The notes under the pieces: model-generated
Databases searched by the model: none
What the model was told of the DNA's origin: nothing
What the model saw: only the letters and a program-made list of their open reading frames with translations
Source of the DNA: Nanobdellati archaeon
GTDB taxonomy: Archaea > B1Sed10-29 > WALL01
Direction of reading: 5' to 3'
Length of the DNA stretch: 55,213 nucleotides
Assembly (NCBI GenBank): GCA_015522845.1
Contig: WALL01000009.1
Location: 1-55,213, forward strand
Part shown: piece after piece, positions 37,273-50,518 of the stretch
Position numbering within the stretch: position 1 is the first letter of the stretch
Layout of the letters: the number at the start of each line of letters is the position of its first letter
Translations under genes and position numbers: made by a program

Positions 37273-37863
37273 TTACCTTATTGCCTTTTCGCCGTTTTGG
37301 TTCCGCACCTTAATGTGCTTTGGCCCCTCGAGGTCGCGGGCAATCCTTTCAAGCCCACTAAGCTCCCTGTCTGCATATATGATAAGCGTACCCGTTAGCT
37401 GCGAGGCGGCATCGCGTATATCCCCATCCTGAAGGCCATTTGCATCAAGCACTACCTCATGCGCAACGCCGGACGACTCCAGCATCCTGATGCTTTTCCT
37501 TACCTCTTCAAAGCTATGCTTCCCCGCCTTCTCAAACGAGTCCCTGTAAAGCGGCGCAGGGATATGGACAGAAACGTAGTCAACTACTTTCCTAGCAATC
37601 ATTTTCCCAAGCTGTTTTGGGTTGGAGCCATCGGTCTCAATGCGGACAAGCTTCCCCTTTAGCTTCATCCTCTTTGCTATTATTGGCAGGTCGCTTTGCC
37701 CTTCCACATCCCCCCTAAAGATGACTGCATTCGTGGTAAAGTTCTTGTGGAGCTCAGCCTCTAGCTCCCGCATGCTGTGCCGGCCATTCCCAGCCACAAT
37801 TACCATTGAGATTTTGCCAGGCCACGCTTTTGTGTCTTGGCTGGTGTAGCTGGCTATGTCCAT
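37273..37863 (-). CDS. NrdG-like radical-SAM fold protein lacking all cluster cysteines (cysteine-free paralog)
   Basis: It aligns with the NrdG at 38509 (AWPGKISMVIVAGNGRHSMRELEAEL versus DYPGNVSTIIFTGGCNMRCPFCHNFEL; LVRIETDGSNP versus LVKLDSNGLNP; VDYVSVHIPAP versus IDYIAMDVKAP). The protein contains no Cys at all. Confidence 0.65.
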   Translation of the reverse strand: MDIASYTSQDTKAWPGKISMVIVAGNGRHSMRELEAELHKNFTTNAVIFRGDVEGQSDLPIIAKRMKLKGKLVRIETDGSNPKQLGKMIARKVVDYVSVHIPAPLYRDSFEKAGKHSFEEVRKSIRMLESSGVAHEVVLDANGLQDGDIRDAASQLTGTLIIYADRELSGLERIARDLEGPKHIKVRNQNGEKAIR

Positions 37864-38508: not shown

Positions 38509-39201
38509 TCAAATTCCACGAATGCAAGTCTTTTTCACTTTCTTCTTTGCGATTTCCTCGAATTGCCTGAGCACCTTTGGCTCGTAAGCCTTTGAAAGCG
38601 GGCCCTCTTTTTTTACGGCGTTGTACTGCTGGAGGCAGTACTTCTCGGCACCCTCGACAAGCGAGACAACATCTGCAAACTCATCCTGGGGTATGAATGC
38701 GGGGACGACGGTGGTCCTAAACTCATATTCCACGCCAGAGCCCATTATAAGGCGTATGCTTTCCCTTATCTTTGACATGTCTATGGGCACGCCAGTTGCT
38801 TCGCTGTAATGCTTCTCAGGCGCCTTGACATCCATTGCGATGTAGTCAATCACAGGGAAAAGCTCCTTCAGCGCATTAGGGTTCAGGCCATTGCTGTCAA
38901 GCTTAACTAGCAGGCCAGTCCTTTCCCTTATGCGCTCTATGAACCCCTTCAGCGCAGGCATCCAAAGCGTTGGCTCCCCACCGGTTATGACAACGCCATC
39001 TATGAACTTTTTCCTCTCGTCAAGGTAGTCAAGCACCTGCTGTTCCGGGATTTTCTCAAACTTCTCCGGCTCTGTTGCCAGCTCGAAGTTGTGGCAGAAC
39101 GGGCAGCGCATGTTACATCCGCCGGTGAAAATTATGGTTGATACATTGCCTGGATAGTCTATCAGTGTCTGCGGAAGGATCCCGCGGATATCAACTTCCA
39201 T
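38509..39201 (-). CDS. nrdG: Anaerobic ribonucleoside-triphosphate reductase activating protein (radical SAM)
   Basis: GGCNMRCPFCHN is the CxxxCxxC cluster motif, and VVITGGEPTL is the SAM-binding motif. The ATG at 39201 lies 4 nt after the stop of the glycyl-radical mini-ORF. Confidence 0.85.
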   Translation of the reverse strand: MEVDIRGILPQTLIDYPGNVSTIIFTGGCNMRCPFCHNFELATEPEKFEKIPEQQVLDYLDERKKFIDGVVITGGEPTLWMPALKGFIERIRERTGLLVKLDSNGLNPNALKELFPVIDYIAMDVKAPEKHYSEATGVPIDMSKIRESIRLIMGSGVEYEFRTTVVPAFIPQDEFADVVSLVEGAEKYCLQQYNAVKKEGPLSKAYEPKVLRQFEEIAKKKVKKTCIRGI

Positions 39202-39205
39202 TGGC

Positions 39206-39364
39206 TCACGCAGTGCTCTTTTTTGGCGCAGTTGCAACCGCTGCTTGCTTCAGGTTAAAGAATTTCCTGTCCCTGAACTCTTCCTGCTTTCCTTCGTTCC
39301 AGTTGCTAATTGGCCTAAAATAGCCAACAACCCTGCTGTAAACTTCAACTTTTTCATCACACAT
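39206..39364 (-). CDS. Stand-alone glycyl-radical peptide of the class III RNR (52 aa)
   Basis: MCDEKVEVYSRVVGYFRPISNWNEGKQEEFRDRKFF... carries the NrdD C-terminal glycyl-radical signature (R-V-V-G-Y ... W-N-x-G-K-x-x-E-F). AAGGAGGT lies about 8 nt upstream of the ATG. The ORF is below the 60-aa cutoff of the supplied track. Confidence 0.7.
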   Translation of the reverse strand: MCDEKVEVYSRVVGYFRPISNWNEGKQEEFRDRKFFNLKQAAVATAPKKSTA

Positions 39365-39379
39365 TTTTCATTACCTCCT

Positions 39380-41335
39380 TTAGTCGTATGGGCATTTTTC
39401 GTGTGCCCCGGGTATGTACCCATGTACCGGGCATATTGTGAATGTTGGCGTCACAGAGAAGTAAGGCAGCTTGTAGTTCTCTGCAACCCTCCGCACGAGC
39501 TTCTTGGTCGACTCCGCATCCTCAAGCCTTTCGCCGAGGTATGCATGGAGCACTGTCCCGCCGGTGTACCTCCTCTGCAGCTCGTCCTGGTGCTCAAGCA
39601 CCTTAAACAAGTCGTCAGAGTAGTTGGCAGGGAGCTGTGTGGAGTTAGTGTAGTATGGTGCCTTTGTCCCCTGGGTAAATATGTTTGGGAATTCCTTCTT
39701 GTCTATCTTTGCCAGGCGGTAGCTTGCCCCCTCAGCCGGCGATGCTTCAAGGTTGTAGATGTGGCCTGTCTCCTCCTGGAAGTCAGATATCCTATCGCGC
39801 ATAAAGTCCATTACCTTTATTGCGAACTTCCTCCCGTCGTCAGTGTATATCCCCTCGCCAAGGAAGTTTACGCAGCTTTCATTCATGCCTACAAGCCCAA
39901 TGGTTGTGAAGTGGTGGTCCAGCGTGCCAAGGTAGCGCTTTGTATAAGGCAGCAGGCCACGGTCTATGTTCCCCTGGACCTCTTTCCTCTTTATCTCAAG
40001 CGAGGTCTTTGCAAGCAGCATGAGGTGGTCAAGGTTCTCGAAATAGCTGTCCTCATCGCGTGAGAGGTAGCCAAGGCGCGACATATTGATTGTGACGACA
40101 CCGACAGAGCCTGTTGACTCCCCTGAGCCAAACAGGCCGCCGGTCTTATTCCTTAGCTCGCGGAGGTCTAGCTGGAGGCGGCAGCACATTGAGCGCACAT
40201 CGCTTGGGTCTAGGTCACTGTTTATGAAATTCTGGAAGTAGGGAATCCCATACTTTGCAGTCATCTCAAACAGCAGGTTCGAGTTTTCGGAATCCCAGTC
40301 AAAGTCTTTTGTTATGTTGTAGGTTGGTATTGGGAACGTGAATATCCTCCCATTTGCGTCCCCCTCCATCATCACCTCAAGGAATGCCTTATTAACTAAG
40401 TCCATCTCTGGCTGGTAGTCTGCATAAGTCTCATCGGTTATCTCGCCGCCATAGACAATTGGGCTGTCCCTCAAGTCTTTTGGGACAACCCAGTCAAAGG
40501 TTAGGTTTGTGAATGGCGTTTGGTTCCCCCACCTGCTCGTTTGGTTAGCCGAGAATATGAACTCCTGTATGCCCTGCTTTATTTGGTCGTAGGAGAGGCG
40601 GTCCTTGCGGACAAAGGGGGCAAGGTAAGTGTCGAAGCTTGAGAACGCCTGTGCGCCAGCCCACTCATTCTGCAATGTTCCTAAGAAGTTCACCATCTGC
40701 CCAAGCGCAGCATCAAAGTGCCTTGCTGGCTTTGCGGATACCCTCCCGGGCACACCGTTAAACCCCTCATTAAGCAGCTGCGCAAGCGACCAGCCAGCGC
40801 AGTAGCCAGCAAGCGTGCCATAGCTAAGGTCGTGGATGTGGAAGTCGCCCTCACGGTGTGCCTGGGCAACGTCTTTTGGATATACATTATTAAGCGTGTA
40901 TTCTGCGACAACCGTGCCACTCAGGTTCGCCTGCAGCCCGCTTAGCGAGTAGCTTGCATTGCTGTTCTCCTTGACGCGCCAGTCCTGGAGGTTGACATAG
41001 CCATCAATCATCTCCGTTACTTTTTCAACGAAGCTCTTTTCGCTCCTCATCCGCGCACGCTGCTCACGGTAAAGTATGTATGCCTTCGCGGTTGAGGCAT
41101 GGCCATCCTCAATAAGCACCTTCTCGACAGCATCCTGTACTTCCTCAATGGAGGGCATCTGGTTATCAAATTTTTTCTCCAGTGCTGCAACTACTTCACC
41201 TGCCAGCTTGGCTGCTAGCTCGCGGTTATTGCCGCCAACCGCACGGGCAGCCTTAAATATGGCATTAGTGATCCTGCTCTTGTCGAAATCAACTACACGC
41301 CCATCGCGCTTGCGTATCTTACGGATTTTAGCCAT
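39380..41335 (-). CDS. nrdD: Anaerobic (class III) ribonucleoside-triphosphate reductase, large chain truncated before the glycyl-radical domain
   Basis: N-terminal ATP-cone (IRKRDGRVVDFDKSRITNAI...), active-site motifs GYCAGWS and SMCCRLQLD. It ends ...CPVHGYIPGAHEKCPYD-stop, in the middle of the Zn-site. Confidence 0.85.
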   Translation of the reverse strand: MAKIRKIRKRDGRVVDFDKSRITNAIFKAARAVGGNNRELAAKLAGEVVAALEKKFDNQMPSIEEVQDAVEKVLIEDGHASTAKAYILYREQRARMRSEKSFVEKVTEMIDGYVNLQDWRVKENSNASYSLSGLQANLSGTVVAEYTLNNVYPKDVAQAHREGDFHIHDLSYGTLAGYCAGWSLAQLLNEGFNGVPGRVSAKPARHFDAALGQMVNFLGTLQNEWAGAQAFSSFDTYLAPFVRKDRLSYDQIKQGIQEFIFSANQTSRWGNQTPFTNLTFDWVVPKDLRDSPIVYGGEITDETYADYQPEMDLVNKAFLEVMMEGDANGRIFTFPIPTYNITKDFDWDSENSNLLFEMTAKYGIPYFQNFINSDLDPSDVRSMCCRLQLDLRELRNKTGGLFGSGESTGSVGVVTINMSRLGYLSRDEDSYFENLDHLMLLAKTSLEIKRKEVQGNIDRGLLPYTKRYLGTLDHHFTTIGLVGMNESCVNFLGEGIYTDDGRKFAIKVMDFMRDRISDFQEETGHIYNLEASPAEGASYRLAKIDKKEFPNIFTQGTKAPYYTNSTQLPANYSDDLFKVLEHQDELQRRYTGGTVLHAYLGERLEDAESTKKLVRRVAENYKLPYFSVTPTFTICPVHGYIPGAHEKCPYD

Positions 41336-41832
41336 TTAAACGCCCCTAGTTCATTTTGCAACTATTATTATGCAATATTATTCGGAATTCGAAACACCAC
41401 TCGTGTGGAGTAGTTAGTGCATACTTATTTATAAAGATATTTATTAGGATACCGAACTAAAATATGCATGATACACATACTTTCCAAACCATATGCCTGC
41501 AGAGTGTAGGGAAACCACACTTTTACGCTATTTTATGGCGGAGAAGTATGCGGCCATTACAGCAATTACGAGCTCGCTTACAACCCTTTGCTTCCTCATA
41601 AGCTCGCTGTCCCCTGACCCAAGCTTTGCATTTGCAGCCGCATTTGCGAAGGGGGTGAGGATGAACACCCGCCCAGCCGCCGCCGGAAGCATGTTGTTGT
41701 TGCCCAGGAAGACGAGTATGATGTTCAGCACGAAATAGTATCCCGCCCGGATAGAAGCACTATCCCGTATTTGCTGGTCATGCCAAAAAGCTAACCGGGC
41801 ATTTAATAAAACCCTTTTGTTAAAACACTGGC

Positions 41833-42339
41833 ATGCAAGCAAGGCCAACTAAAGATGAGTACTATCTTGAGATAGCAAAGGCGGTCGGTCTCCGCTCGCC
41901 CTGCCTGCGCAAGAAGTTTGGCGCCATAATTGTCCTTAATGATGCAATTGTCTCAACCGGCTACAACGGACCGCCCCGCGGCGGGGTAAACTGCTATGAC
42001 GTTGGCTGCCTGCGCGAGAAGATGAACCGCCCCCACTACTCAGCCTATGATGACTCCTGCCCTGCAGTGCATGCTGAGGAGAACAGCATCATCAATGCGG
42101 CACGCAACGGCACTAAGGTGATGGGCGGCGTGCTTTACATACAGGGAGTATCCCCAGAAGACGGCTCGCTTGTTGAGTCTAGGCCCTGCCACCGATGCCG
42201 CCGTGCACTAATAAATGCGGGCATTGAAGAGGTGGTTACCCGCAACACTGGCGGAGAGATACTGCACTACAATGTTGCTGAGTGGATACGCGAGGACACC
42301 GAGGAATACATAAGAAAATATAACGAAGTGGCAAAATGA
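41833..42339 (+). CDS. dCMP/CMP deaminase (zinc-dependent)
   Basis: HAEENSIINAA (H-A-E) and PCHRCRRALINAGI (PCxxC). Confidence 0.85.
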   Translation: MQARPTKDEYYLEIAKAVGLRSPCLRKKFGAIIVLNDAIVSTGYNGPPRGGVNCYDVGCLREKMNRPHYSAYDDSCPAVHAEENSIINAARNGTKVMGGVLYIQGVSPEDGSLVESRPCHRCRRALINAGIEEVVTRNTGGEILHYNVAEWIREDTEEYIRKYNEVAK

Positions 42340-42647
42340 AGGTTTTCTTATTTGTGTCCTCGAGGTGCACCCATTGCCCAAAGGCAGAGAAGATGGCAAA
42401 GAGGATGTTCCCTGAATACTATGATAAGGGGCTCTCATTTACGAAGGTGCGCATGAAGACAAGCGAGGGAAAGCACATGGCAAAGGAATACAGCATACGT
42501 GGCACCCCCACATTTATCTTCCTTGATGACAGTGGCAGCTACCTTGACAGGATTGTTGGCGTGCCAAGCGAGGGCACACTCCGCGGTGCGGTTGAGAAGC
42601 ACCTTGGGATTAGGAAATCAATTTTTAGCAAGCTTCTTGGAAAATGA
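42336..42647 (+). CDS. Thioredoxin/glutaredoxin-fold protein (CxxC)
   Basis: MKVFLFVSSRCTHCPKAEKMAK...IRGTPTFIFLD. ATGA overlap with the deaminase gene. Confidence 0.7.
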   Translation: MKVFLFVSSRCTHCPKAEKMAKRMFPEYYDKGLSFTKVRMKTSEGKHMAKEYSIRGTPTFIFLDDSGSYLDRIVGVPSEGTLRGAVEKHLGIRKSIFSKLLGK

Positions 42648-42675
42648 TTTAAACCCCAAAAGACAATATTATTGC

Positions 42676-42966
42676 ATGCCGGAGAAAGAGCCGCTTCTCC
42701 GCCGCCTTAGGAAATGGATGGCCAACGGCGTGAAGAGGCGCAAGCGCTATGAGATTGAGAACCACATGGGGCCTTCAAGGGATGCACTTAGGGACGAGGG
42801 CTTTGCCCCTGAGGAGGTGGGGGCACTTGAGCAGCACTACTTTGAGCACCCTGAAGAGCTCGAGGAGTTCCCTATCTTTTGGGCGCAGGTGGGCAGGGAG
42901 CGCGAGGCCTCAGTCCTAAAATTTAAGGAACTGCTGAAGAAGATAGGCGCTTCAGAAAAGAGGTAA
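42676..42966 (+). CDS. Hypothetical acidic/basic small protein
   Basis: From the ATG at 42676: MPEKEPLLRRLRKWMANGVKRRKRYEIENH... The upstream part of the track ORF overlaps the thioredoxin gene in another frame. Confidence 0.4.
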   Translation: MPEKEPLLRRLRKWMANGVKRRKRYEIENHMGPSRDALRDEGFAPEEVGALEQHYFEHPEELEEFPIFWAQVGREREASVLKFKELLKKIGASEKR

Positions 42967-43082: not shown

Positions 43083-45038
43083 TTATTCTTTTCGCTTTAA
43101 GGTAAATGCCAAGGCACCCTTCCTTAAGAGCTCGTAGGCCTTGCTGCTTGGGCTCTCATAGCTGCTTATGTCCAGTTTTGCAGCCCCCTGGCAGTAGTGC
43201 TGGAGCCGGATTTCACTTTCAGCCCATGCGCCCTCGTCAGCAAGGCGGTGGGTAAAGCCATGGGATGGGTAAACCTCCTTAACGCCAAACCGCCTCTCGT
43301 TCATCTTTGAAAGCCGGGCGGAGGCTGCAGCAGCATCAAGGTTCCCAAACAAGAAATACCCCCCCTCACTGTTGTATTTTTCAAGCTTGTCCTTTGCGTA
43401 GGCAAGCACCCTCTCGGCAAACTTGAATGCTGACGTGCTCTTGTTTATCTCCTCGCCAGTGTAGTCTGCTACGGCATTGTCAAGCCCTAGCACGCTTATA
43501 ACCGCTGGCGCGCTATCCAGCGAATAGTACTCGTTCCCCCCAGACTTTTGGGATAGGAAGGGGAGTATCCTATCCTTGTGCAGGCGCGCTTCAATTATCT
43601 TCCTCTTCTCATCAACGGCCTTTTTTGAAAGCTCAAGCGCATGGTCAAACTCGCTAAAGAAGTCTGCATCATCCTTGGCAGAAAGGCCTATGGCAGGCAA
43701 GTTCAGCGTTACCTCCTGCAGCACCCCAGTCCTTAGCGTTGTAAACCACTTGCCATTCCGTGGGGACAGCATGTGGTTCGGGGAGACGGCGTTCATATTC
43801 TGCCCATGCCCGCGAAGGTTCAGCACAACAAGGTCGTTCTTTTCCAGGAATTGCGGGAGCACTTTTTCAGTGCTTAGCGGGATAGACCCCCCCCGCACTT
43901 TCAGCACTACCATTGGTGTTGTGAATGCCCTGCCATTGTAGTCGCCGGCAGCCATTGTCTCAAAGAAAAGGTTAAGGAAGCGGATGCTCTCACGCTCAAA
44001 GTCGTAGTAGCTGTCCTGGCCAGTGATGCCCTTTGGCAGTATTGCCCGCTCCTTCTTTAGGAAGGGAGGGGTCTCCAGCTCAAAGTTGAGGGTTGACTGT
44101 GCAAGGCTGCCGCCGCGCACAGAATATATTTGGTTTAGCTCGTAAAGGAAAGTTTGTATTGCCTGCCTGATTTCCTTATCCGATAGGCCAATGGTGTATG
44201 GCGCCATGAAGGTGTTAAAGAAGTCGAAGGACTGCCCCCCGCTAAGGTGCGTTTCCCCAGAAAGCATGACACGTATTGCGTGTGATATTGCGACCGCCGC
44301 GTGCTTTGCTGGGCCTGCAACCGTGGCCTTCCCAAGCCCGTCAGTGGCAACGCCGTTCTGCAGGAACCAGCGGAGGTCGTTTTGCAGGCTTACGGGCCTC
44401 GTTGCAAAATAGGGCAGGTCATGGATATGGATGACCCCACTAAGGTGGGCCTTTGAGACATCCTCAGGCAGCAGCTTTACCAGCGCATATTCCCCAGCAA
44501 CGGTATCGCCAAACTTCTTGTGCAGCGCCTCAGGGTTTGGGGTGCCTGGCGTTTGTATTATCCTTGTAACGTCGTAAATTGGCAGGCCAAGCCGGGTGTA
44601 TTCGGTCTTTGCCTGCATATACCTCCTTTCAAGGAGCTTTGAGCTCACCATCTCGCGTATGAGCGGTGCAGATATGTACCTTAGCTCAAGGCGGCGGATA
44701 TCACCCTCAACCTCGCTTGCTATTTCAGCACACGTGTTTTGCGGGAGGGTGGTCTCCTTCATCAGCGACTCAGCTATCTTCTGCTTCTTAAATGACTCAA
44801 GCATGCCGTCGCTCGTGCGCACATAAATCCTGTGGTAGTTCTCAAACAGCCTTGCTGCCTGCTCGTCCCTTTTCTGGAGCTCCTTTACAACAAGGTCGTT
44901 CAGCTCCTCGTCAGTGATATCACTGCCCACCTTTGGCTGCAGTGCAAGCGCTACCTCGCTGGCGAGCCAGAAGCTGATGCCCGCCTTTTTGCACTTGTCT
45001 TCAATGACCTTTGGGTTGAAGTTCGAACCAGAAGCCAC
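43083..45038 (-). CDS. NrdD-like protein with an ATP-cone but without catalytic cysteines, Zn site or glycyl-radical motif
   Basis: It aligns with the nrdD at 39380 (HIHDLPYF versus HIHDLSYG; GDYNGRAFTTPMVVLKV versus GDANGRIFTFPIPTYNI; EVTLNLPAIGL versus VVTINMSRLGY). However, GYCAGW is replaced by TRPVSL and MCCRL by VVLNL. ATP-cone: IYVRTSDGMLESFKKQKIAESL... Confidence 0.7.
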   Translation of the reverse strand: MASGSNFNPKVIEDKCKKAGISFWLASEVALALQPKVGSDITDEELNDLVVKELQKRDEQAARLFENYHRIYVRTSDGMLESFKKQKIAESLMKETTLPQNTCAEIASEVEGDIRRLELRYISAPLIREMVSSKLLERRYMQAKTEYTRLGLPIYDVTRIIQTPGTPNPEALHKKFGDTVAGEYALVKLLPEDVSKAHLSGVIHIHDLPYFATRPVSLQNDLRWFLQNGVATDGLGKATVAGPAKHAAVAISHAIRVMLSGETHLSGGQSFDFFNTFMAPYTIGLSDKEIRQAIQTFLYELNQIYSVRGGSLAQSTLNFELETPPFLKKERAILPKGITGQDSYYDFERESIRFLNLFFETMAAGDYNGRAFTTPMVVLKVRGGSIPLSTEKVLPQFLEKNDLVVLNLRGHGQNMNAVSPNHMLSPRNGKWFTTLRTGVLQEVTLNLPAIGLSAKDDADFFSEFDHALELSKKAVDEKRKIIEARLHKDRILPFLSQKSGGNEYYSLDSAPAVISVLGLDNAVADYTGEEINKSTSAFKFAERVLAYAKDKLEKYNSEGGYFLFGNLDAAAASARLSKMNERRFGVKEVYPSHGFTHRLADEGAWAESEIRLQHYCQGAAKLDISSYESPSSKAYELLRKGALAFTLKRKE

Positions 45039-45115
45039 GCTATCAGCCTCTTTTTTATATTCCCAAGTTTATAACAGTTAAGCAGGGGTTAGCTTTCCTA
45101 ACCGCGGGTGTTCGC

Positions 45116-45556
45116 TTGGATATTGACGAGATAGATGCAAAGATACTTGAGCTGCTGGCAGCTAACGCTAGGATGAGCTACTCCGACATAGCCCGGCACT
45201 TTGGGTTTTCAGATGTTGCAATACGCAAGCGCGTCGAGAAGCTTACCGAGAGGGGGATAATCAAGCGGTTTACCATAGTTACTGACAGCAAGAAGCTTGG
45301 GAAGAACGTGACTGCATTCATCTTCTTTAACACTCGCTCTGATAAGACAAACGAGATAGCTGAGCAGCTCCTCAGCCTGGATGGCGTTGAGGAGGTGTAT
45401 ATCTCACTAGGCGTCTACGACATCATTGCAAAGGTGCATTGCAACGACGTTGTTGCGCTGAAGGAGCTGACAGAAAAGAAGCTTAACGACATAAACGGCA
45501 TAATCGAGGTTCGGCCATCGATTGTCTTTACTGAGGTTCAGAAGAATGGGCCTTGA
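45116..45556 (+). CDS. Lrp/AsnC-family transcriptional regulator
   Basis: HTH IDAKILELLAANARMSYSDIARHFGFSDVAIRKRVEKLTERGII plus a RAM domain. TTG start. Confidence 0.85.
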   Translation: MDIDEIDAKILELLAANARMSYSDIARHFGFSDVAIRKRVEKLTERGIIKRFTIVTDSKKLGKNVTAFIFFNTRSDKTNEIAEQLLSLDGVEEVYISLGVYDIIAKVHCNDVVALKELTEKKLNDINGIIEVRPSIVFTEVQKNGP

Positions 45557-46079
45557 GGTTGAGCTAAAGGCGCCAGCGCCGCGCGGCATTGTAGCGAGGC
45601 TGCGGGCTGCAGGTGCAATAAAGCAGTTATCCGCAACCAACATTGATACTTTTTACGACCTGCCTGGGGAGCCGCTGCGGGGGAGGGGCGAGACGCTCCG
45701 GCTGCGCAGGCAAGGGAAAAAGCTAATCCTCACCTATAAGTCCAGCTCTAAGTCAAAGCGGGCCAAGGCAAAGGAGGAGACCGAGCTTACAGTATCGCCA
45801 GCAATAAGGGCCTTACTGGCAGGGCTTGGCTACAGGGAGACCTTTAAGAAGGAGACAAGGCGCGAGGAATACAGGCTTGGCGGGGTTACGGTATGCGTTG
45901 ACCATGTAAAGGGCCTTGGCAGCTGGGTGGAGTTTGAGGCCTTTGGCCCGGTGGCGGCCTCGCGCAAGAGGATAGTCCAGACCGCCGGTAAGGTTGGCAT
46001 CCCTGAAGGCAAGCTTATCAGCGCATCTTATGTGGCGCTGCTTAGGGAAAAGCTAAAGAAGAAGAAAAGGAGGAAATAA
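45546..46079 (+). CDS. CYTH-domain protein (class IV adenylyl cyclase / triphosphate tunnel metalloenzyme)
   Basis: N-terminal MGLEVELK is the ExExK signature, and the length is about 175 aa. Confidence 0.75.
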   Translation: MGLEVELKAPAPRGIVARLRAAGAIKQLSATNIDTFYDLPGEPLRGRGETLRLRRQGKKLILTYKSSSKSKRAKAKEETELTVSPAIRALLAGLGYRETFKKETRREEYRLGGVTVCVDHVKGLGSWVEFEAFGPVAASRKRIVQTAGKVGIPEGKLISASYVALLREKLKKKKRRK

Positions 46080-46082
46080 GAT

Positions 46083-46868
46083 ATGCGAAGGCTCGTTGCA
46101 CTGCTAGTCCTAATTGCGTCGGTATCGGCAACAATCCAGCTTGTTACACCAAAGCACATAGCGCTGGAGCCGCTCGGCACGCTTGAGATCTCCCCGGTTG
46201 GGCCTGGCCATGACATAGTGCTAAAGTTCCAGCGGAAGGTTGGGGGCTATGTTTGGGACAGCGTCCGCATCATAAACACTATTGACCCTGATTGGCAGAC
46301 AGCCAGCTACAGCGACTATAAGTACATATACTACAAAATTCACGTCCCGCCAAACAAGCCATCTGGCAGGTACACATTCCAATTTGAGATAAGGGACAAC
46401 GAGGGGCTGGAGGACCCTGAGACTGCAGTTGCCCAGGTGGTAGTAACACACAATCAGGATGAGCTGCTTGAGGTGCTTCCAATGCCCGCCTCCGCAACAG
46501 GATATGCTGCAGAGAACTTTTCGGTGGGGTTCAAGCTGCATAACAAGGCCCTTTCCCAGGCAAGCTATGAGGTAACCTCATGGGTAAAGGAGCTGCCGTC
46601 GCTTGGCAACACCACCATTGCCCACCGCTTTATGGGCGGCGAGGCCAGCAGCGTGAGCGTTCCAGTGGCAATCCCAGAGGAGGGGCACTATACGCTTGTT
46701 GCGCATGTGTGGAGCAAGGACAACCCAACCATAAGCAAGACCGTGTCCACGCACCTGCTGATAAGGCCAACCTTCCGCTCAAAGCTCCGCAGCATTGGCG
46801 AAGGCTTTCCGCTTGTGCCCCTGACGATGGCGCCGTTCTATGCGCTGCTAGGCGTGTTTGGCTGGTAG
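46083..46868 (+). CDS. Secreted protein with a C-terminal hydrophobic anchor, hypothetical
   Basis: Signal peptide MRRLVALLVLIASVSA, a beta-rich body, and the C-terminal segment MAPFYALLGVFGW. Confidence 0.5.
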   Translation: MRRLVALLVLIASVSATIQLVTPKHIALEPLGTLEISPVGPGHDIVLKFQRKVGGYVWDSVRIINTIDPDWQTASYSDYKYIYYKIHVPPNKPSGRYTFQFEIRDNEGLEDPETAVAQVVVTHNQDELLEVLPMPASATGYAAENFSVGFKLHNKALSQASYEVTSWVKELPSLGNTTIAHRFMGGEASSVSVPVAIPEEGHYTLVAHVWSKDNPTISKTVSTHLLIRPTFRSKLRSIGEGFPLVPLTMAPFYALLGVFGW

Positions 46869-46872
46869 TGCT

Positions 46873-48342
46873 ATGGGATTTTATTCCGATATAATATCCG
46901 AGATTGAGCAAGGCAAAATAACAACCCGCTTACAGCTTGAGAAAAGGAAGAAGCAGCTTTGCAAGAGGTATGGCATTTCAAAAATCCCAACCAATGCCGA
47001 CATACTATCCCGTGCAGACAGCGAGTTGCCCCTGCTAATAACCAAGCCAACGCGCTCACTCTCAGGGGTATCAGTTGTTGCAGTCATGACCAAGCCACAG
47101 CCTTGCCCTGGCAAGTGCATTTATTGCCCCCGGGGCAAGGCAGCACAGAGCTATACTGGCTACGAGCCAGCAGCAATGCGCGCAAGGCAGAATAATTTTG
47201 ACCCTTACCTGCAGGTAGCAAGCAGGCTGAAGCAGCTCACAGATGCGGGCCACCCAACCGATAAGATAGAAGTGATTGTGATGGGCGCCACGTTCACCGC
47301 CATGCCAGTTAGCTATCAGGAGCAGTTTGTGCTTGGCATATTCAACGCCCTAAACGGGGCAAAGTCCCAAGCGATTGCCGATGCCCAGCACGCAAATGAG
47401 ACAGCAAAGCACCGCTGTGTTGGCCTAACCTTTGAGGTCCGGCCCGACTATTGCAGCGCGGAAGACATTGCCCGGATGCTCTCTTACGGTGCAACTCGCG
47501 TTGAGCTTGGCGTGCAAACGGTCTTTGATAGCATTTATAAGAAGGTGCAGCGCGGGCACACCGTGAAGGACGTTGCCGACGCAACCAAGCGCCTTAAGGA
47601 TGCTGGGCTAAAAGTTTGCTACCACCTTATGCCCGGCCTGCCTGGCTCTTCCGTGAAGAAGGACCTCGAGATGTTCCGCATCGTCTTTGAGGATGAGCGC
47701 TTTAAGCCAGACATGATAAAAATATACCCGTGCCTCCTTGCAAAGCGGGAGTTTTACGACAATGACATAGTGCACTCGATGTACCGCAGCGGCGAGTGGA
47801 AGCCCCTAGGCAACGAGGAAGCTGCTTTGCTCATAGCCGAGGCAAAGAAGTATTTCCCCTATTGGGTGCGCGTTATGCGCATACAGCGTGATATTCCCGC
47901 ACCATATATAGAGGCAGGGGTAACCGCAGGGAACCTAAGGCAGCTGGCCCATGAGATAAACCCGCACTGTAACTGCATACGCTGCCGTGAGATAGGCCGA
48001 GTTGATGAGACGCGCAAGCCAAAGCTTGTCCGCCGCGAATACCGCGCAAGCGGCGGCACTGAGATATTCTTTTCCTACGAGACAAGCAAGGCCTTGTTTG
48101 GCTTCATCCGGCTGCGGAAGGCAAGCCAAAACTTTATCCGCGAGCTGCATGTTTATGGCCCAGAGGTGCCAATTGGCGGCAAGGGGAAGGTGCAGCACAC
48201 AGGCATAGGAAGGGCGCTCCTTGCTGCCGCAGAAAGTGAGTGCACGGGGAAGCTTTACATCATTGCCGGCATTGGAGTGCGTGAGTATTACCGCTCACTT
48301 GGCTATTCCCTGGAAGCGCCCTACATGGTGAAGTATTTATAA
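46873..48342 (+). CDS. elp3: Elp3-type radical SAM/GNAT tRNA modification enzyme
   Basis: The radical-SAM cysteines in QPCPGKCIYCP, and a C-terminal GNAT with HTGIGRALLAAAE. Confidence 0.85.
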   Translation: MGFYSDIISEIEQGKITTRLQLEKRKKQLCKRYGISKIPTNADILSRADSELPLLITKPTRSLSGVSVVAVMTKPQPCPGKCIYCPRGKAAQSYTGYEPAAMRARQNNFDPYLQVASRLKQLTDAGHPTDKIEVIVMGATFTAMPVSYQEQFVLGIFNALNGAKSQAIADAQHANETAKHRCVGLTFEVRPDYCSAEDIARMLSYGATRVELGVQTVFDSIYKKVQRGHTVKDVADATKRLKDAGLKVCYHLMPGLPGSSVKKDLEMFRIVFEDERFKPDMIKIYPCLLAKREFYDNDIVHSMYRSGEWKPLGNEEAALLIAEAKKYFPYWVRVMRIQRDIPAPYIEAGVTAGNLRQLAHEINPHCNCIRCREIGRVDETRKPKLVRREYRASGGTEIFFSYETSKALFGFIRLRKASQNFIRELHVYGPEVPIGGKGKVQHTGIGRALLAAAESECTGKLYIIAGIGVREYYRSLGYSLEAPYMVKYL

Positions 48343-48364
48343 TCCCTCTGCCCTAAATGCAGCT

Positions 48365-48556
48365 ATGCAGCCAACTAAGTCGCAGCTTGACACGCTTGAG
48401 GCATACTTGTGCACCCTTGTTTCCGCGGGCAAGGCGGAATTGCTTAGGCGCAAGTTTGAGAAGTCAGATGGGAATAAGTCAGATGAGGCAATAAGGCTCT
48501 TCGAGACGCGGAGCCATGTCCGGCTGCAGGATATTGAGCGCTTGGTGGGAAGCTAA
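48365..48556 (+). CDS. Hypothetical small protein
   Basis: A 63-aa ORF whose stop overlaps the next start (TAATG). No recognisable motif. Confidence 0.35.
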   Translation: MQPTKSQLDTLEAYLCTLVSAGKAELLRRKFEKSDGNKSDEAIRLFETRSHVRLQDIERLVGS

Positions 48557-48831
48557 TGGCATACTGCAGCATCTGCAAGGCAGAGGGGAAAAAGGTGCCT
48601 GCGGTAATGTTCTGTGCCAACTGCGGAAAGCCAATTTGCGCTGCGCATGTTGTGCATGGCCGCTACTGCTCTGAGGAGTGCTACCGCGAACATCAGCTTA
48701 AGGAGCTTGACAAGGTGAAGCCAATAGCCCATGCCAGCAGGCCAAGCTATTGGCTTTGGGCTGCTGGCGTAGCCATATTCTTGCTTGCCTTTGCCATTAC
48801 ATACCTGCTCCTGCCTTATCTGGGGGTTTAG
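48556..48831 (+). CDS. Cys-rich zinc-finger protein with a C-terminal TM anchor
   Basis: CSICKAEGKKVPAVMFCANCGKPICAAHVVHGRYCSEEC followed by WLWAAGVAIFLLAFAITYLLL. Confidence 0.5.
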   Translation: MAYCSICKAEGKKVPAVMFCANCGKPICAAHVVHGRYCSEECYREHQLKELDKVKPIAHASRPSYWLWAAGVAIFLLAFAITYLLLPYLGV

Positions 48832-48832
48832 C

Positions 48833-50518
48833 ATGAGGATAGTGGCACTGCATTCAAACTTTATTGAGTTCGAGCCCAAGAAGAGGGCGGTAGAGGCAGC
48901 TGAAGACATTAGGATGGCCAGCAAGCGCATCGAGGGCTGCCTTGTTGTCTTAACGGCGATAGAGAAGCAAGACGAGCAGGGCATTGGGAGCGTTGTAAGC
49001 CAGGCAGCAGAGAGCATACGCAAGATTGCATTGCAGCTAAAGGTGGATAAGGTTGTAATATACCCTTGGGTGCACCTGACACACGATCCCTCCTCGCCGG
49101 GCAGTGCAAAGCTGGCCCTATCAATGCTTGAGGACGAGCTGTCGGGCAGCCTTACTACAAGCCATGCGCCCTTTGGGTGGTATAAGGCATTCACACTTTC
49201 AGTGAAGGGGCACCCGCTAGCAGAGCTGTCCCGCCAGTTCTCCCCAAAGGGAAAGCCAAAAGAGTTTGACTACAGGAAGGCACTTAACTCAATCACCAAG
49301 GCAACACTTGACAGCTCCAAGCTAAAGGGGAACGACCATCGCATCATAGGCCAGAACCTCGACCTATTCAGCTTTTACAATGTTGCGCCGGGGATGGTGT
49401 TCTGGCACCCAAAAGGGCTTGCCATATGGAATGAGCTCGTGCGTTACTGGCGCGAGGAGCACAGGAAGGCAGGCTACCAGGAAGTATCCACCCCCCAAGT
49501 TATGGATACCCTGCTTTGGAAGGTATCAGGGCACTGGGACCACTACCGTGAGAATATATTCCTTACCGAGTACGAAGGGAGGAAGTTTGCAGTCAAGCCA
49601 ATGAACTGCCCTGGAGGGATACTTATCTTTAAGAGCAGGCCGCGCAGCTACCGCGAGCTGCCCATGCGTATCTCGGAGCTGGGGGTGGTGCACCGCCTTG
49701 AGCTGTCTGGTGTGCTTTCCGGGCTATTCCGCGTGGTAAAGTTTACACAGGACGATGCACACATCTACTGCACTGAAAGCCAGCTTGAGGGCGAGATAGC
49801 GGGCGTGATAGCGCTTACTGAGAAGATTTACAGGAAATTTGGGTTTGAATATTCGCTTGAGCTCTCAACAAGGCCAGAGAAGGCAATGGGCAGCAAGGCG
49901 CTTTGGGACAAGGCAGAGAGCGCCCTCCGCAATGTGCTTGACAAGCAAAAGCTGCCCTACAAGGTCAATGAGGGCGACGGCGCATTTTACGGCCCTAAGA
50001 TAGACTTCCATATAACTGACTCGCTTGGCAGGTCTTGGCAGCTTGGGACAATACAGCTTGACTTCCAGATGCCCGAGCGCTTTGACATTACATATGCTGG
50101 CGAAGACGGGAAGCTGCACAGGCCAATAATGCTTCACCGCGCCATATACGGCTCCCTCGAGCGCTTCATAGGCATACTCCTAGAGCACTGGAACGGCAAC
50201 CTTCCACCCTGGCTAGCGCCAGTACAGGCAAAGGTCCTCTCCTTTAGCGGGAAGAACGACGCTGCAGCAGCCAGCATATCCCAAAAGCTGTTTAGCATGG
50301 GCTACCGCACGGAGCTTGACACCAGGCCAGCAACAATACAGTCGAAGATAAGGGATGCCGAGATGCAGAAAGTCCCTTACATCATTGTCATCGGGGACAA
50401 GGAGGAGAAAAGCGGCACCCTTGCAGTTAGGAGGCACGGCGAGAAAAAGGCGCGCTTTGGCATTAGCTTTAGCGACTTTGAAGCCCAGCTAGCAAGGGAA
50501 GTTTCAGAAAGGGTATAG
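48833..50518 (+). CDS. thrS: Threonyl-tRNA synthetase with an archaeal-type N-terminal editing domain
   Basis: MRIVALHSNFIEFEPKK... is the DTD-like editing domain. The class II core is FWHPKG, MNCPG, HRLELSG and HRAIYGS, followed by an anticodon-binding domain. Confidence 0.9.
   Translation: MRIVALHSNFIEFEPKKRAVEAAEDIRMASKRIEGCLVVLTAIEKQDEQGIGSVVSQAAESIRKIALQLKVDKVVIYPWVHLTHDPSSPGSAKLALSMLEDELSGSLTTSHAPFGWYKAFTLSVKGHPLAELSRQFSPKGKPKEFDYRKALNSITKATLDSSKLKGNDHRIIGQNLDLFSFYNVAPGMVFWHPKGLAIWNELVRYWREEHRKAGYQEVSTPQVMDTLLWKVSGHWDHYRENIFLTEYEGRKFAVKPMNCPGGILIFKSRPRSYRELPMRISELGVVHRLELSGVLSGLFRVVKFTQDDAHIYCTESQLEGEIAGVIALTEKIYRKFGFEYSLELSTRPEKAMGSKALWDKAESALRNVLDKQKLPYKVNEGDGAFYGPKIDFHITDSLGRSWQLGTIQLDFQMPERFDITYAGEDGKLHRPIMLHRAIYGSLERFIGILLEHWNGNLPPWLAPVQAKVLSFSGKNDAAAASISQKLFSMGYRTELDTRPATIQSKIRDAEMQKVPYIIVIGDKEEKSGTLAVRRHGEKKARFGISFSDFEAQLAREVSERV

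Follow-up and report, generated by a model that had tools for sequence, protein, structure and literature searches.

A conserved NrdD-like protein lacking the radical machinery of anaerobic ribonucleotide reductase at an archaeal locus

Why would an archaeon keep, beside a functional gene for an anaerobic (class III) ribonucleotide reductase (RNR), a second full-length nrdD-like gene from which the catalytic cysteines are gone? The question is raised by a contig of a Nanobdellati archaeon (NCBI GenBank assembly GCA_015522845.1, contig WALL01000009.1, positions 1 to 55,213 of the forward strand), the whole 55,213-nucleotide stretch of which was analysed and is hereafter called the window. The protein in question, given the working name PARA, is encoded at 43083-45038 on the minus strand. 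By its structure PARA belongs to the NrdD superfamily, yet it fails five defining catalytic features. It is predicted to be unable to carry out known RNR chemistry, though it is maintained like an enzyme. We tentatively favour, at somewhat less than an even chance, the reading that it would be a non-catalytic, nucleotide-binding sensor with a regulatory output. The gene and its parts are as follows.

43083..45038 (stop codon included), minus strand: PARA, a cysteine-less and glycyl-radical-less NrdD-like protein of 651 aa, with a GTG start and an intact open reading frame (ORF)
44832..45026, minus strand: remnant of a first ATP-cone, residues 5-69, four helices, N-terminal beta-hairpin missing
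44598..44828, minus strand: second ATP-cone, VRTSDG type, complete, residues 71-147 (Pfam PF03477), 27 of 77 positions invariant in 24 orthologs
43086..44591, minus strand: NrdD alpha/beta-barrel core, residues 150-651, stopping where the Zn ribbon and glycyl-radical domain start in real NrdDs

The stop-to-stop frame of the gene (43086-45068) extends merely 10 codons beyond the ORF, and there is therefore no room for a hidden N-terminal domain. Both domains named by the first-pass annotation, an earlier reading of the letters made without database searches, were matched in Pfam: NRDD with E=1.6e-61, covering profile positions 8-434 of 562, and the ATP-cone PF03477 at residues 71-141 (E=7e-13, 49.3 bits against a gathering cut-off of 25.8). 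Nothing besides NrdD and ATP-cone matches was returned by Pfam and NCBIfam. The score against TIGR02487 (198.3 bits) was below the cut-off of 326.35, and those against the remaining NCBIfam NrdD equivalogs were far under their cut-offs too; the real NrdD of the window (39380-41335, minus strand) scored 1061 against an equivalog cut-off of 548. BLASTP aligned residues 73-584 of PARA with that NrdD at 24% identity (E=2e-41), recovering all of the HIHDL, GD-NGR-FT-P and VT-N blocks on which the claimed homology to the nearby nrdD had rested. The AlphaFold2 model, built from an alignment of 68 relatives, had a pLDDT of 90.5 and a pTM of 0.83. When it was compared with the PDB by Foldseek, the best 36 matches were all class III RNRs (probability 1.0, TM 0.55-0.73); these enzymes are those of phage T4 and of the bacteria Prevotella copri, Streptococcus thermophilus and Thermotoga maritima.

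Within this fold, every element of the radical chemistry is absent, in 24 of 24 aligned PARA orthologs. Three of the replaced positions are listed here.

44388..44390, minus strand: Ser217 codon, at the position of the beta-1 cysteine (T4 Cys79 / T. maritima (Tm) Cys125), Ser invariant in 24/24 orthologs
43773..43784, minus strand: S419-P-N-H422, opposite the tip of the QCC(R/A) finger loop of catalytic relatives in family alignments
43323..43340, minus strand: L567-DAAAA572, in place of the TPAES phosphate-binding loop and its bridging Glu

The beta-1 cysteine (T4 Cys79 / Tm Cys125) is conserved in all known RNRs (PMC4493059). It had been proposed that the cysteine of the GYCAGW block is replaced in PARA, and Ser217 was found opposite it in BLAST, phmmer-PDB and MAFFT family alignments alike. 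The thiyl-radical cysteine of NrdDs sits in a finger loop with the motif MGCR, MCCR or QCCR (10.1101/2022.04.23.489257). PARA contains no cysteines other than those at positions 16, 103 and 616; residues 104-615 are free of them, and that the finger-loop cysteine is lost therefore holds independently of the alignment. The earlier statement that the CC pair is gone was thus right, but its supposed replacement by VVLNL was not reproduced: the family alignment gives SPNH and BLAST gives GHGQN. Also as stated before, the C-terminus has neither the Zn site nor RxxGY, since PARA ends before the Zn ribbon and contains 0 CxxC pairs. Comparison of group consensus sequences showed that PARA has also lost the NxN flap, the GGQxxF motif of loop 2, the phosphate loop TPAES together with the bridging Glu, and YYTN. 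A glycyl-radical peptide encoded by a separate ORF near PARA was looked for in the window and 12 related loci (numbered with L below; protein clusters with P), and only the peptides of real NrdDs were found. Within the window, RxxGY occurs in a single ORF, the one for the peptide of the real NrdD (39206-39364), and no such ORF occurs within 10 kb of PARA in L003, L010 and L013. Catalytic cysteines or a glycyl-radical motif at the aligned positions, which would have spoken for a working reductase, were looked for and neither was found.

The first-pass annotation had suggested following the phyletic range and the ratio of nonsynonymous to synonymous substitutions (dN/dS) of the gene. PARA orthologs form 25 further clusters (P0002-P0026) of equal length, with 49-83% identity and identical substitutions. 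In the GTDB one-genome-per-species data, they occur in eight assemblies of Iainarchaeota/Diapherotrites-type DPANN archaea, and the family is confined to Iainarchaeota-like DPANN archaea; about a dozen remoter clusters of the "SLQND" type (558-628 aa) widen it. All nine coding sequences compared (9/9) are intact. For L005-L006, the sole pair with unsaturated synonymous sites, dN/dS was 0.097, as compared with 0.096 for the real NrdD in these two genomes; in the other pairs dS was saturated, with dN of 0.2-0.45. The view that the gene is not decaying was thus borne out, and with the radical elements gone from all aligned orthologs and a dN/dS of ~0.10, the claim that PARA is a pseudoenzyme and not a reductase is well supported. 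The alignment of 24 ortholog sequences has 117 invariant columns. Constraint is tightest in the second cone (mean identity 0.83, 27 invariant positions) and in the strands of the old nucleotide pocket (HxHD with beta-1, 0.88; beta-B, 0.89; beta-F, 0.85), and loosest in the former TPAES loop and the C-terminus.

Implicit in the first-pass annotation was that PARA arose by degeneration of the neighboring nrdD, at a distance of 2 kb. This origin is contradicted by identity: 24% to that neighbor vs 33-39% to catalytic archaeal NrdDs with RPYCFQHD, QCCRL/QCCAY and SRITGYYQ motifs. The QCCR/A finger loop defines the clade NrdD3 (10.1101/2022.04.23.489257), and PARA is, judged from these comparisons, a non-catalytic descendant of the QCCR/A-type ("NrdD3") class III RNR lineage. 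With catalytic NrdD3 enzymes it shares the barrel fold, the VRTS-type cone, the linker, NPE..HK, HxHD, PAK(H/R), GD and VxxNLP. Unlike them, it is without both the beta-1 Cys and the Cys pair of the finger loop, and the NxN flap, TPAES, YYTN, the Zn ribbon and the glycyl-radical domain are missing as well; its first cone is truncated, and it scores under every NCBIfam NrdD cut-off. Other cysteine-less NrdD-like proteins branch apart from PARA (P0073/P0075, P0083-P0085, P0061, L031 9962-12148 and L037 9929-12025), with examples from Methanobacteriota and Altiarchaeota, some of which retain a Zn ribbon along with a glycyl motif in degenerate form, e.g., ISRAGGAVSR. The pattern suggests that catalysis was lost repeatedly and independently in archaeal NrdD paralogs. 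Methanobacteriaceae matches from a genome scan were considered as extra dead paralogs and rejected, being real NrdDs with MGCR and RITGY.

Two of the motifs that PARA has kept are listed here.

44418..44429, minus strand: H204-I-H-D207, kept HxHD motif; H204, H206 and D207 invariant in orthologs
44301..44315, minus strand: G242-P-A-K-H246, kept PAK(H/R) motif; G242 and P243 invariant, aligned in PDB NrdDs and the window NrdD

The roles of class III RNR motifs were taken from PMC11226230 and PMC4493059, according to which HxHD is the substrate-triphosphate motif (PMC4493059, PMC11226230). PAK(H/R) is common to all NrdDs and is probably linked to the specificity site. The comparison of group consensus sequences gave HxHD, NPE..HK, PAK(H/R), GD and VxxNLP as the motifs retained by PARA. 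The base-reading Gln of the T4, Tm and St enzymes is opposite R256 of PARA, and catalytic NrdD3-type relatives have K there. Residues 5-69 matched cone 1 of two-cone NrdDs of 755-800 aa with an hhalign probability of 98.9% (E=3.6e-17), and four helices (residues 9-18, 23-33, 43-57 and 59-69) are present in the model of this first cone. The alternative that residues 1-70 are a repeat of PARA's own second cone was rejected, as hhalign gave a non-significant E=0.19. The second cone has the hairpin V73-R-T-S-D-G78, with R-T-S instead of the canonical K-R pair, and the VRTS-type cone and linker are common to the catalytic relatives, PARA and the winged-helix-fused family described below. In other cones, the hairpin Lys-Arg pair (Ec K9/R10, St K19/R20) contacts the nucleotide phosphates (PMC12662201). 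The ATP-cone had been described as intact, which is correct for the complete second cone only; the first is truncated, and the K-R pair is absent from both. The parts that PARA keeps are the parts that bind nucleotides, and nucleotide binding by PARA itself would be in keeping with them.

Further evidence on function came from searching the PARA profile against 1.84 billion representatives. About 60 of the top 144 new matches were without both cysteines. They include a probable sister group of ~710-800 aa in which an N-terminal ArsR/DUF7347 winged helix is followed by an ATP-cone and a full NRDD domain, an arrangement found in 10/10 sampled members plus P0092. Members with genomic coordinates are listed below.

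L046, 9713-11956: winged-helix-fused member
L048, 2980-5226: winged-helix-fused member
L090, 5859-8159: winged-helix-fused member
L091, 3368-5677: winged-helix-fused member
L092, 6001-8214: winged-helix-fused member

These proteins, from Bathyarchaeia and other archaea, combine a winged helix-turn-helix (wHTH), an ATP-cone and an NrdD-like barrel. Like PARA, they are cysteine-less and have no functional glycyl motif, and their cone and linker are the same. They differ in having the winged helix where PARA has the truncated cone (no winged helix was found in PARA by Pfam), in keeping the CxxC pairs of the Zn ribbon, in having lost HxHD, and in being neighbored by nrdD and pyrBI rather than by an Lrp gene. 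In the six loci examined, the fused genes have nrdD and/or pyrB-pyrI as neighbors. They lie directly upstream of a real nrdD in L046, L048 and L090 (the last also with thioredoxin) and beside pyrB-pyrI in L048 and L090-L092; the genomic context of P0092 was uninformative. A neighbor-joining tree (483 columns, 100 bootstraps, simple distances) supported the PARA orthologs at 100/100, PARA with its distant members at 89, the fused family at 100, and both families together at 93. The fused family is a candidate archaeal nucleotide-responsive transcription factor, and as a probable sister group it points to regulation for PARA. Our literature search found no description of the wHTH-fused cysteine-less NrdD family or of DUF7347.

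Next to PARA, on the opposite strand, is a gene for a transcriptional regulator, and the two share a short intergenic region.

45116..45556, plus strand: Lrp/AsnC-family regulator gene, divergent from PARA (Pfam, synteny)
45087..45103, no strand assigned: palindrome GGTTAG-N5-CTAACC in the 77-bp PARA-Lrp intergenic region (45039-45115), a putative operator

Similar palindromes, GGTTCG-N5-CGAACC, are found at the equivalent position in L005 and L002, and TATA-like boxes occur in the intergenic region of the window at 45067-45074 and 45051-45060. In every PARA and PARA-like locus examined, an Lrp/AsnC gene is transcribed divergently from the PARA or PARA-like gene, and LigT is located downstream. 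The pairing extends to 35-38%-identical PARA-like genes without nearby RNR genes, and a functional association of Lrp/AsnC with PARA is plausible on this basis. The syntenic block around PARA reads ThrRS-Elp3-p261-(CYTH)-Lrp-PARA-LigT. The longer order ThrRS-Elp3-p261-(CYTH/Alba-like)-Lrp-PARA-...-LigT-p512-CCA enzyme is kept though the PARAs are 35-50% identical (window 45116-50518, L002-L013). The conserved downstream gene of 512 aa was considered as RNR-linked and rejected, since it encodes a membrane protein with a transglutaminase-like core.

The RNR genes between PARA and LigT vary from locus to locus. In the window, L005 and L006, a dCMP-deaminase/NrdD/peptide/NrdG cassette is present, to which the window adds thioredoxin and p109. 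PARA is directly followed by an intact archaeal-type NrdG in L003/L011 and L013, and a dCMP deaminase lies between the two in L010; these loci have no NrdD close by. The PARA-like gene of L014 is followed by NrdD, glycyl peptide and NrdG. L008 and L049, from the same metagenome-assembled genome, probably make up jointly a locus with PARA, NrdD, glycyl peptide, thioredoxin, NrdG and LigT. The remote PARA-like loci L087-L089 have Lrp, PARA-like and LigT alone, with no RNR genes.

These data are the basis of the favoured reading of PARA as a sensor. The first-pass annotation had suggested a nucleotide sensor or regulator, and this is plausible given the kept second cone, HxHD and GPAKH, the highest conservation in the pocket strands, and the wHTH-fused sister; nucleotide binding, output and partner are what we infer. 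PARA would bind adenine nucleotides at the cone, and its former active or specificity sites, now remodelled, would take up a nucleoside triphosphate (NTP) or deoxynucleoside triphosphate (dNTP). Instead of reducing anything, it would then signal to a partner how the nucleotide pool stands. The output would most likely be transcriptional, probably via the Lrp/AsnC neighbor or the RNR machinery, because Lrp/AsnC shares the 77-bp control region and the sister dead module is fused to a winged helix and encoded near nrdD and pyrBI.

The principle resembles that of NrdR, the bacterial RNR repressor composed of a Zn ribbon and an ATP-cone, whose cone is reported to read ATP/dATP and control RNR gene expression (PMC9110341, PMC12176259). 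In the proposed model, the ATP-cone of PARA would likewise report the nucleotide pool. In NrdR, DNA is bound by the Zn ribbon and an RNR barrel is absent. PARA has a whole dead RNR barrel; having no Zn ribbon, it is not a member of the NrdR family, nor does it have a DNA-binding Pfam domain. A broader scenario, which we consider somewhat unlikely, is that archaea without NrdR built nucleotide-pool sensors from dead NrdD, with one branch fused to a winged helix and located at nrdD and pyrBI loci, and the PARA of DPANN archaea acting in trans with Lrp/AsnC. If true, this would be an unrecognised, widespread archaeal system that couples ATP/dATP or dNTP levels to the transcription of nucleotide-metabolism genes. 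To our knowledge, NrdR is rare in archaea and the sensing of dNTP pools in archaea is largely unknown; the PARA family and its wHTH-fused sister offer concrete candidates for it.

Several observations weigh against the sensor reading. The K-R pair is missing altogether, with the hairpin of cone 1 gone and R-T-S in cone 2, and adenine-nucleotide binding is therefore not assured. PARA itself is without a DNA-binding domain, and from a conserved divergent pair of regulator and target one would usually conclude that the target is under the regulator's control, and not that there is contact between the proteins. The unusually stable gene order weakens any functional inference from adjacency alone, and the proximity of Lrp to PARA may merely reflect that conserved order. 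The clade of PARA and the wHTH-fused family could result from long-branch attraction between fast-evolving cysteine-less lineages, as it was recovered by neighbor joining with simple distances. Finally, the highly conserved new polar residues of the pocket (S217-LQND, E262-T-H264, N421-H422) fit a new catalytic site just as well.

This last point leads to the most serious of the other readings, that PARA is a neofunctionalised enzyme which binds an NTP via HxHD and performs non-radical chemistry on a nucleotide or related metabolite. The residues proposed for such an activity are polar and invariant (S217, Q219, N220, E262, T263, H264, N421, H/Q422, E442). Conservation in PARA is highest in the strands of the former active site, with substitutions that are invariant rather than drifting, and PARA is under the same constraint as a working enzyme. 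PARA retains HxHD, which is gone in the wHTH-fused sister, suggesting that the pocket counts more in PARA, and PARA-like genes persist at loci without any RNR genes. We nevertheless consider a new enzyme unlikely: no non-radical activity is known for the barrel of RNRs and glycyl-radical enzymes, TPAES (the main phosphate loop) and the NxN flap, which close the substrate site, are gone, and no recognisable metal-binding or catalytic motif is present. Decidedly unlikely is a role as a non-catalytic RNR component, either as a heterodimer partner of NrdD or as a docking or storage platform for the glycyl peptide or the activase, possibly acting together with a cysteine-less NrdG-like protein encoded at the same locus. 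A second barrel hosting the peptide is conceivable, as the glycyl-radical domain is a separate peptide in the PARA lineage. PARA immediately precedes an intact NrdG of archaeal type in L003/L011 and L013 and lies near NrdD-GlyPep-NrdG in the window, L005, L006, L014 and probably L008+L049, and the NrdG paralog is likewise under purifying selection. Yet PARA has no Zn-ribbon half-site, which a real large subunit supplies beside the peptide, and the type of the resident NrdD varies (SMCCRL in the window, QCC in L014) while PARA is unchanged. Moreover, L087-L089 have no NrdD, NrdG or glycyl peptide near the PARA-like gene, and no RxxGY ORF was found within 10 kb in L003/L010/L013.

The two remaining explanations deny that PARA is an intact pseudoenzyme. 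It is highly improbable that PARA is still a ribonucleotide reductase in which the radical takes an unconventional path or residues are provided in trans. The fold and HxHD are kept, an intact NrdG follows PARA in some genomes, and the NrdD of T. maritima shows that crystal structures and alignments can mislead on the position of the radical Cys (PMC4493059). Such a reductase would have to work with zero cysteines at 104-615, with a glycyl-radical motif neither in cis nor in a neighboring ORF, and with a protein that scores 198 vs 326 bits, far under the NrdD equivalog cut-offs. The chance that PARA is a decaying pseudogene, or an artefact of assembly or annotation, is next to negligible, although many functional motifs of the parent enzyme are lost. 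Intact full-length ORFs were found in independent ENA, JGI, NCBI and Logan assemblies, in 26 clusters with 49-100% identity and in 8 GTDB species, and this together with the dN/dS of ~0.1 and the 117 invariant columns has already refuted it; the confident model also speaks against it.

Among known systems, the reuse of RNR-derived or enzyme-derived proteins has parallels. Betaherpesvirus homologs of the RNR large subunit, such as M45 of murine cytomegalovirus (MCMV), are inactive and kept as non-enzymatic proteins (10.1101/324590). M45-type homologs are viral, derive from class I R1, and act on host cell-death signalling via an added RHIM motif; neither by evolution nor by mechanism are they connected with PARA. 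In NrtR, a Nudix-related regulator, a nucleotide-binding domain of enzymatic origin is reported to be reused as the effector domain (PMC2330246); NrtR differs from PARA in fold, in being bacterial, and in having the wHTH fused in cis. No description of cysteine-less NrdD paralogs or NrdD pseudoenzymes was found in the literature searched. PARA would be a prokaryotic RNR pseudoenzyme family, constrained as tightly as a working enzyme, and a natural experiment on the ATP-cone and the RNR barrel once catalysis is removed. Public records name the PARA orthologs P0005, P0006, P0011, P0012 and P0018-P0020 "anaerobic ribonucleoside-triphosphate reductase"; as the catalytic residues are missing, this name is a functional misannotation. 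Through it, metabolic reconstructions of DPANN archaea can ascribe to genomes a capacity for dNTP synthesis that PARA cannot provide.

The neighborhood of PARA in the window also includes the following two genes.

39206..39364, minus strand: 52-aa glycyl-radical ORF of the real NrdD (MCDEKVEVYSRVVGYF...), with the RVVGY motif
37276..37863, minus strand: cysteine-less NrdG-like protein of 196 aa (phmmer match to NrdG), speculatively a partner of PARA

The functional NrdD is split (window 39206-41335, minus strand): a 651-aa ORF ends in CPYD-TAA and is followed by an AGGAGG Shine-Dalgarno sequence and the ATG with which the 52-aa ORF starts. The cysteines of the Zn site are therefore shared out over two polypeptides. 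The first-pass annotation had noted that RxxGY is missing from the C-terminus of PARA; the large ORF of the functional NrdD is also without RxxGY, and the motif is on the separate 52-aa ORF. The same split was found in L005 and L006, and L014 and L049, whose NrdD is of another type, have versions with overlapping frames. The separate peptide brings to mind GrcA/YfiD, which serves pyruvate formate-lyase as a free "spare part". The stretch 38509-42966 of the window, between PARA and the old NrdG-like gene, encodes NrdG, the glycyl peptide and NrdD on its minus strand; the genes for dCMP deaminase, thioredoxin and p109 are on the plus strand. This block is absent at that position in L003, L013 and L087-L089. 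The window NrdD belongs to the SMCCRL type and its cone is a canonical KRDG cone, unlike the QCC-type enzymes of related DPANN genomes, and the block looks like an acquired replacement cassette.

By position, the 196-aa NrdG-like protein is orthologous to the intact archaeal-type NrdG found beside LigT in L003, L010, L013 and L049. An 18-residue segment with CxxxCxxC is gone from it, and so is the GGEP motif; the old NrdG of L005 and L006 is likewise without CxxxCxxC and GGEP. Its dN/dS was 0.165, vs 0.148 for the real NrdG, indicating purifying selection, and it is, as far as its motifs tell, a second pseudoenzyme at the PARA locus.

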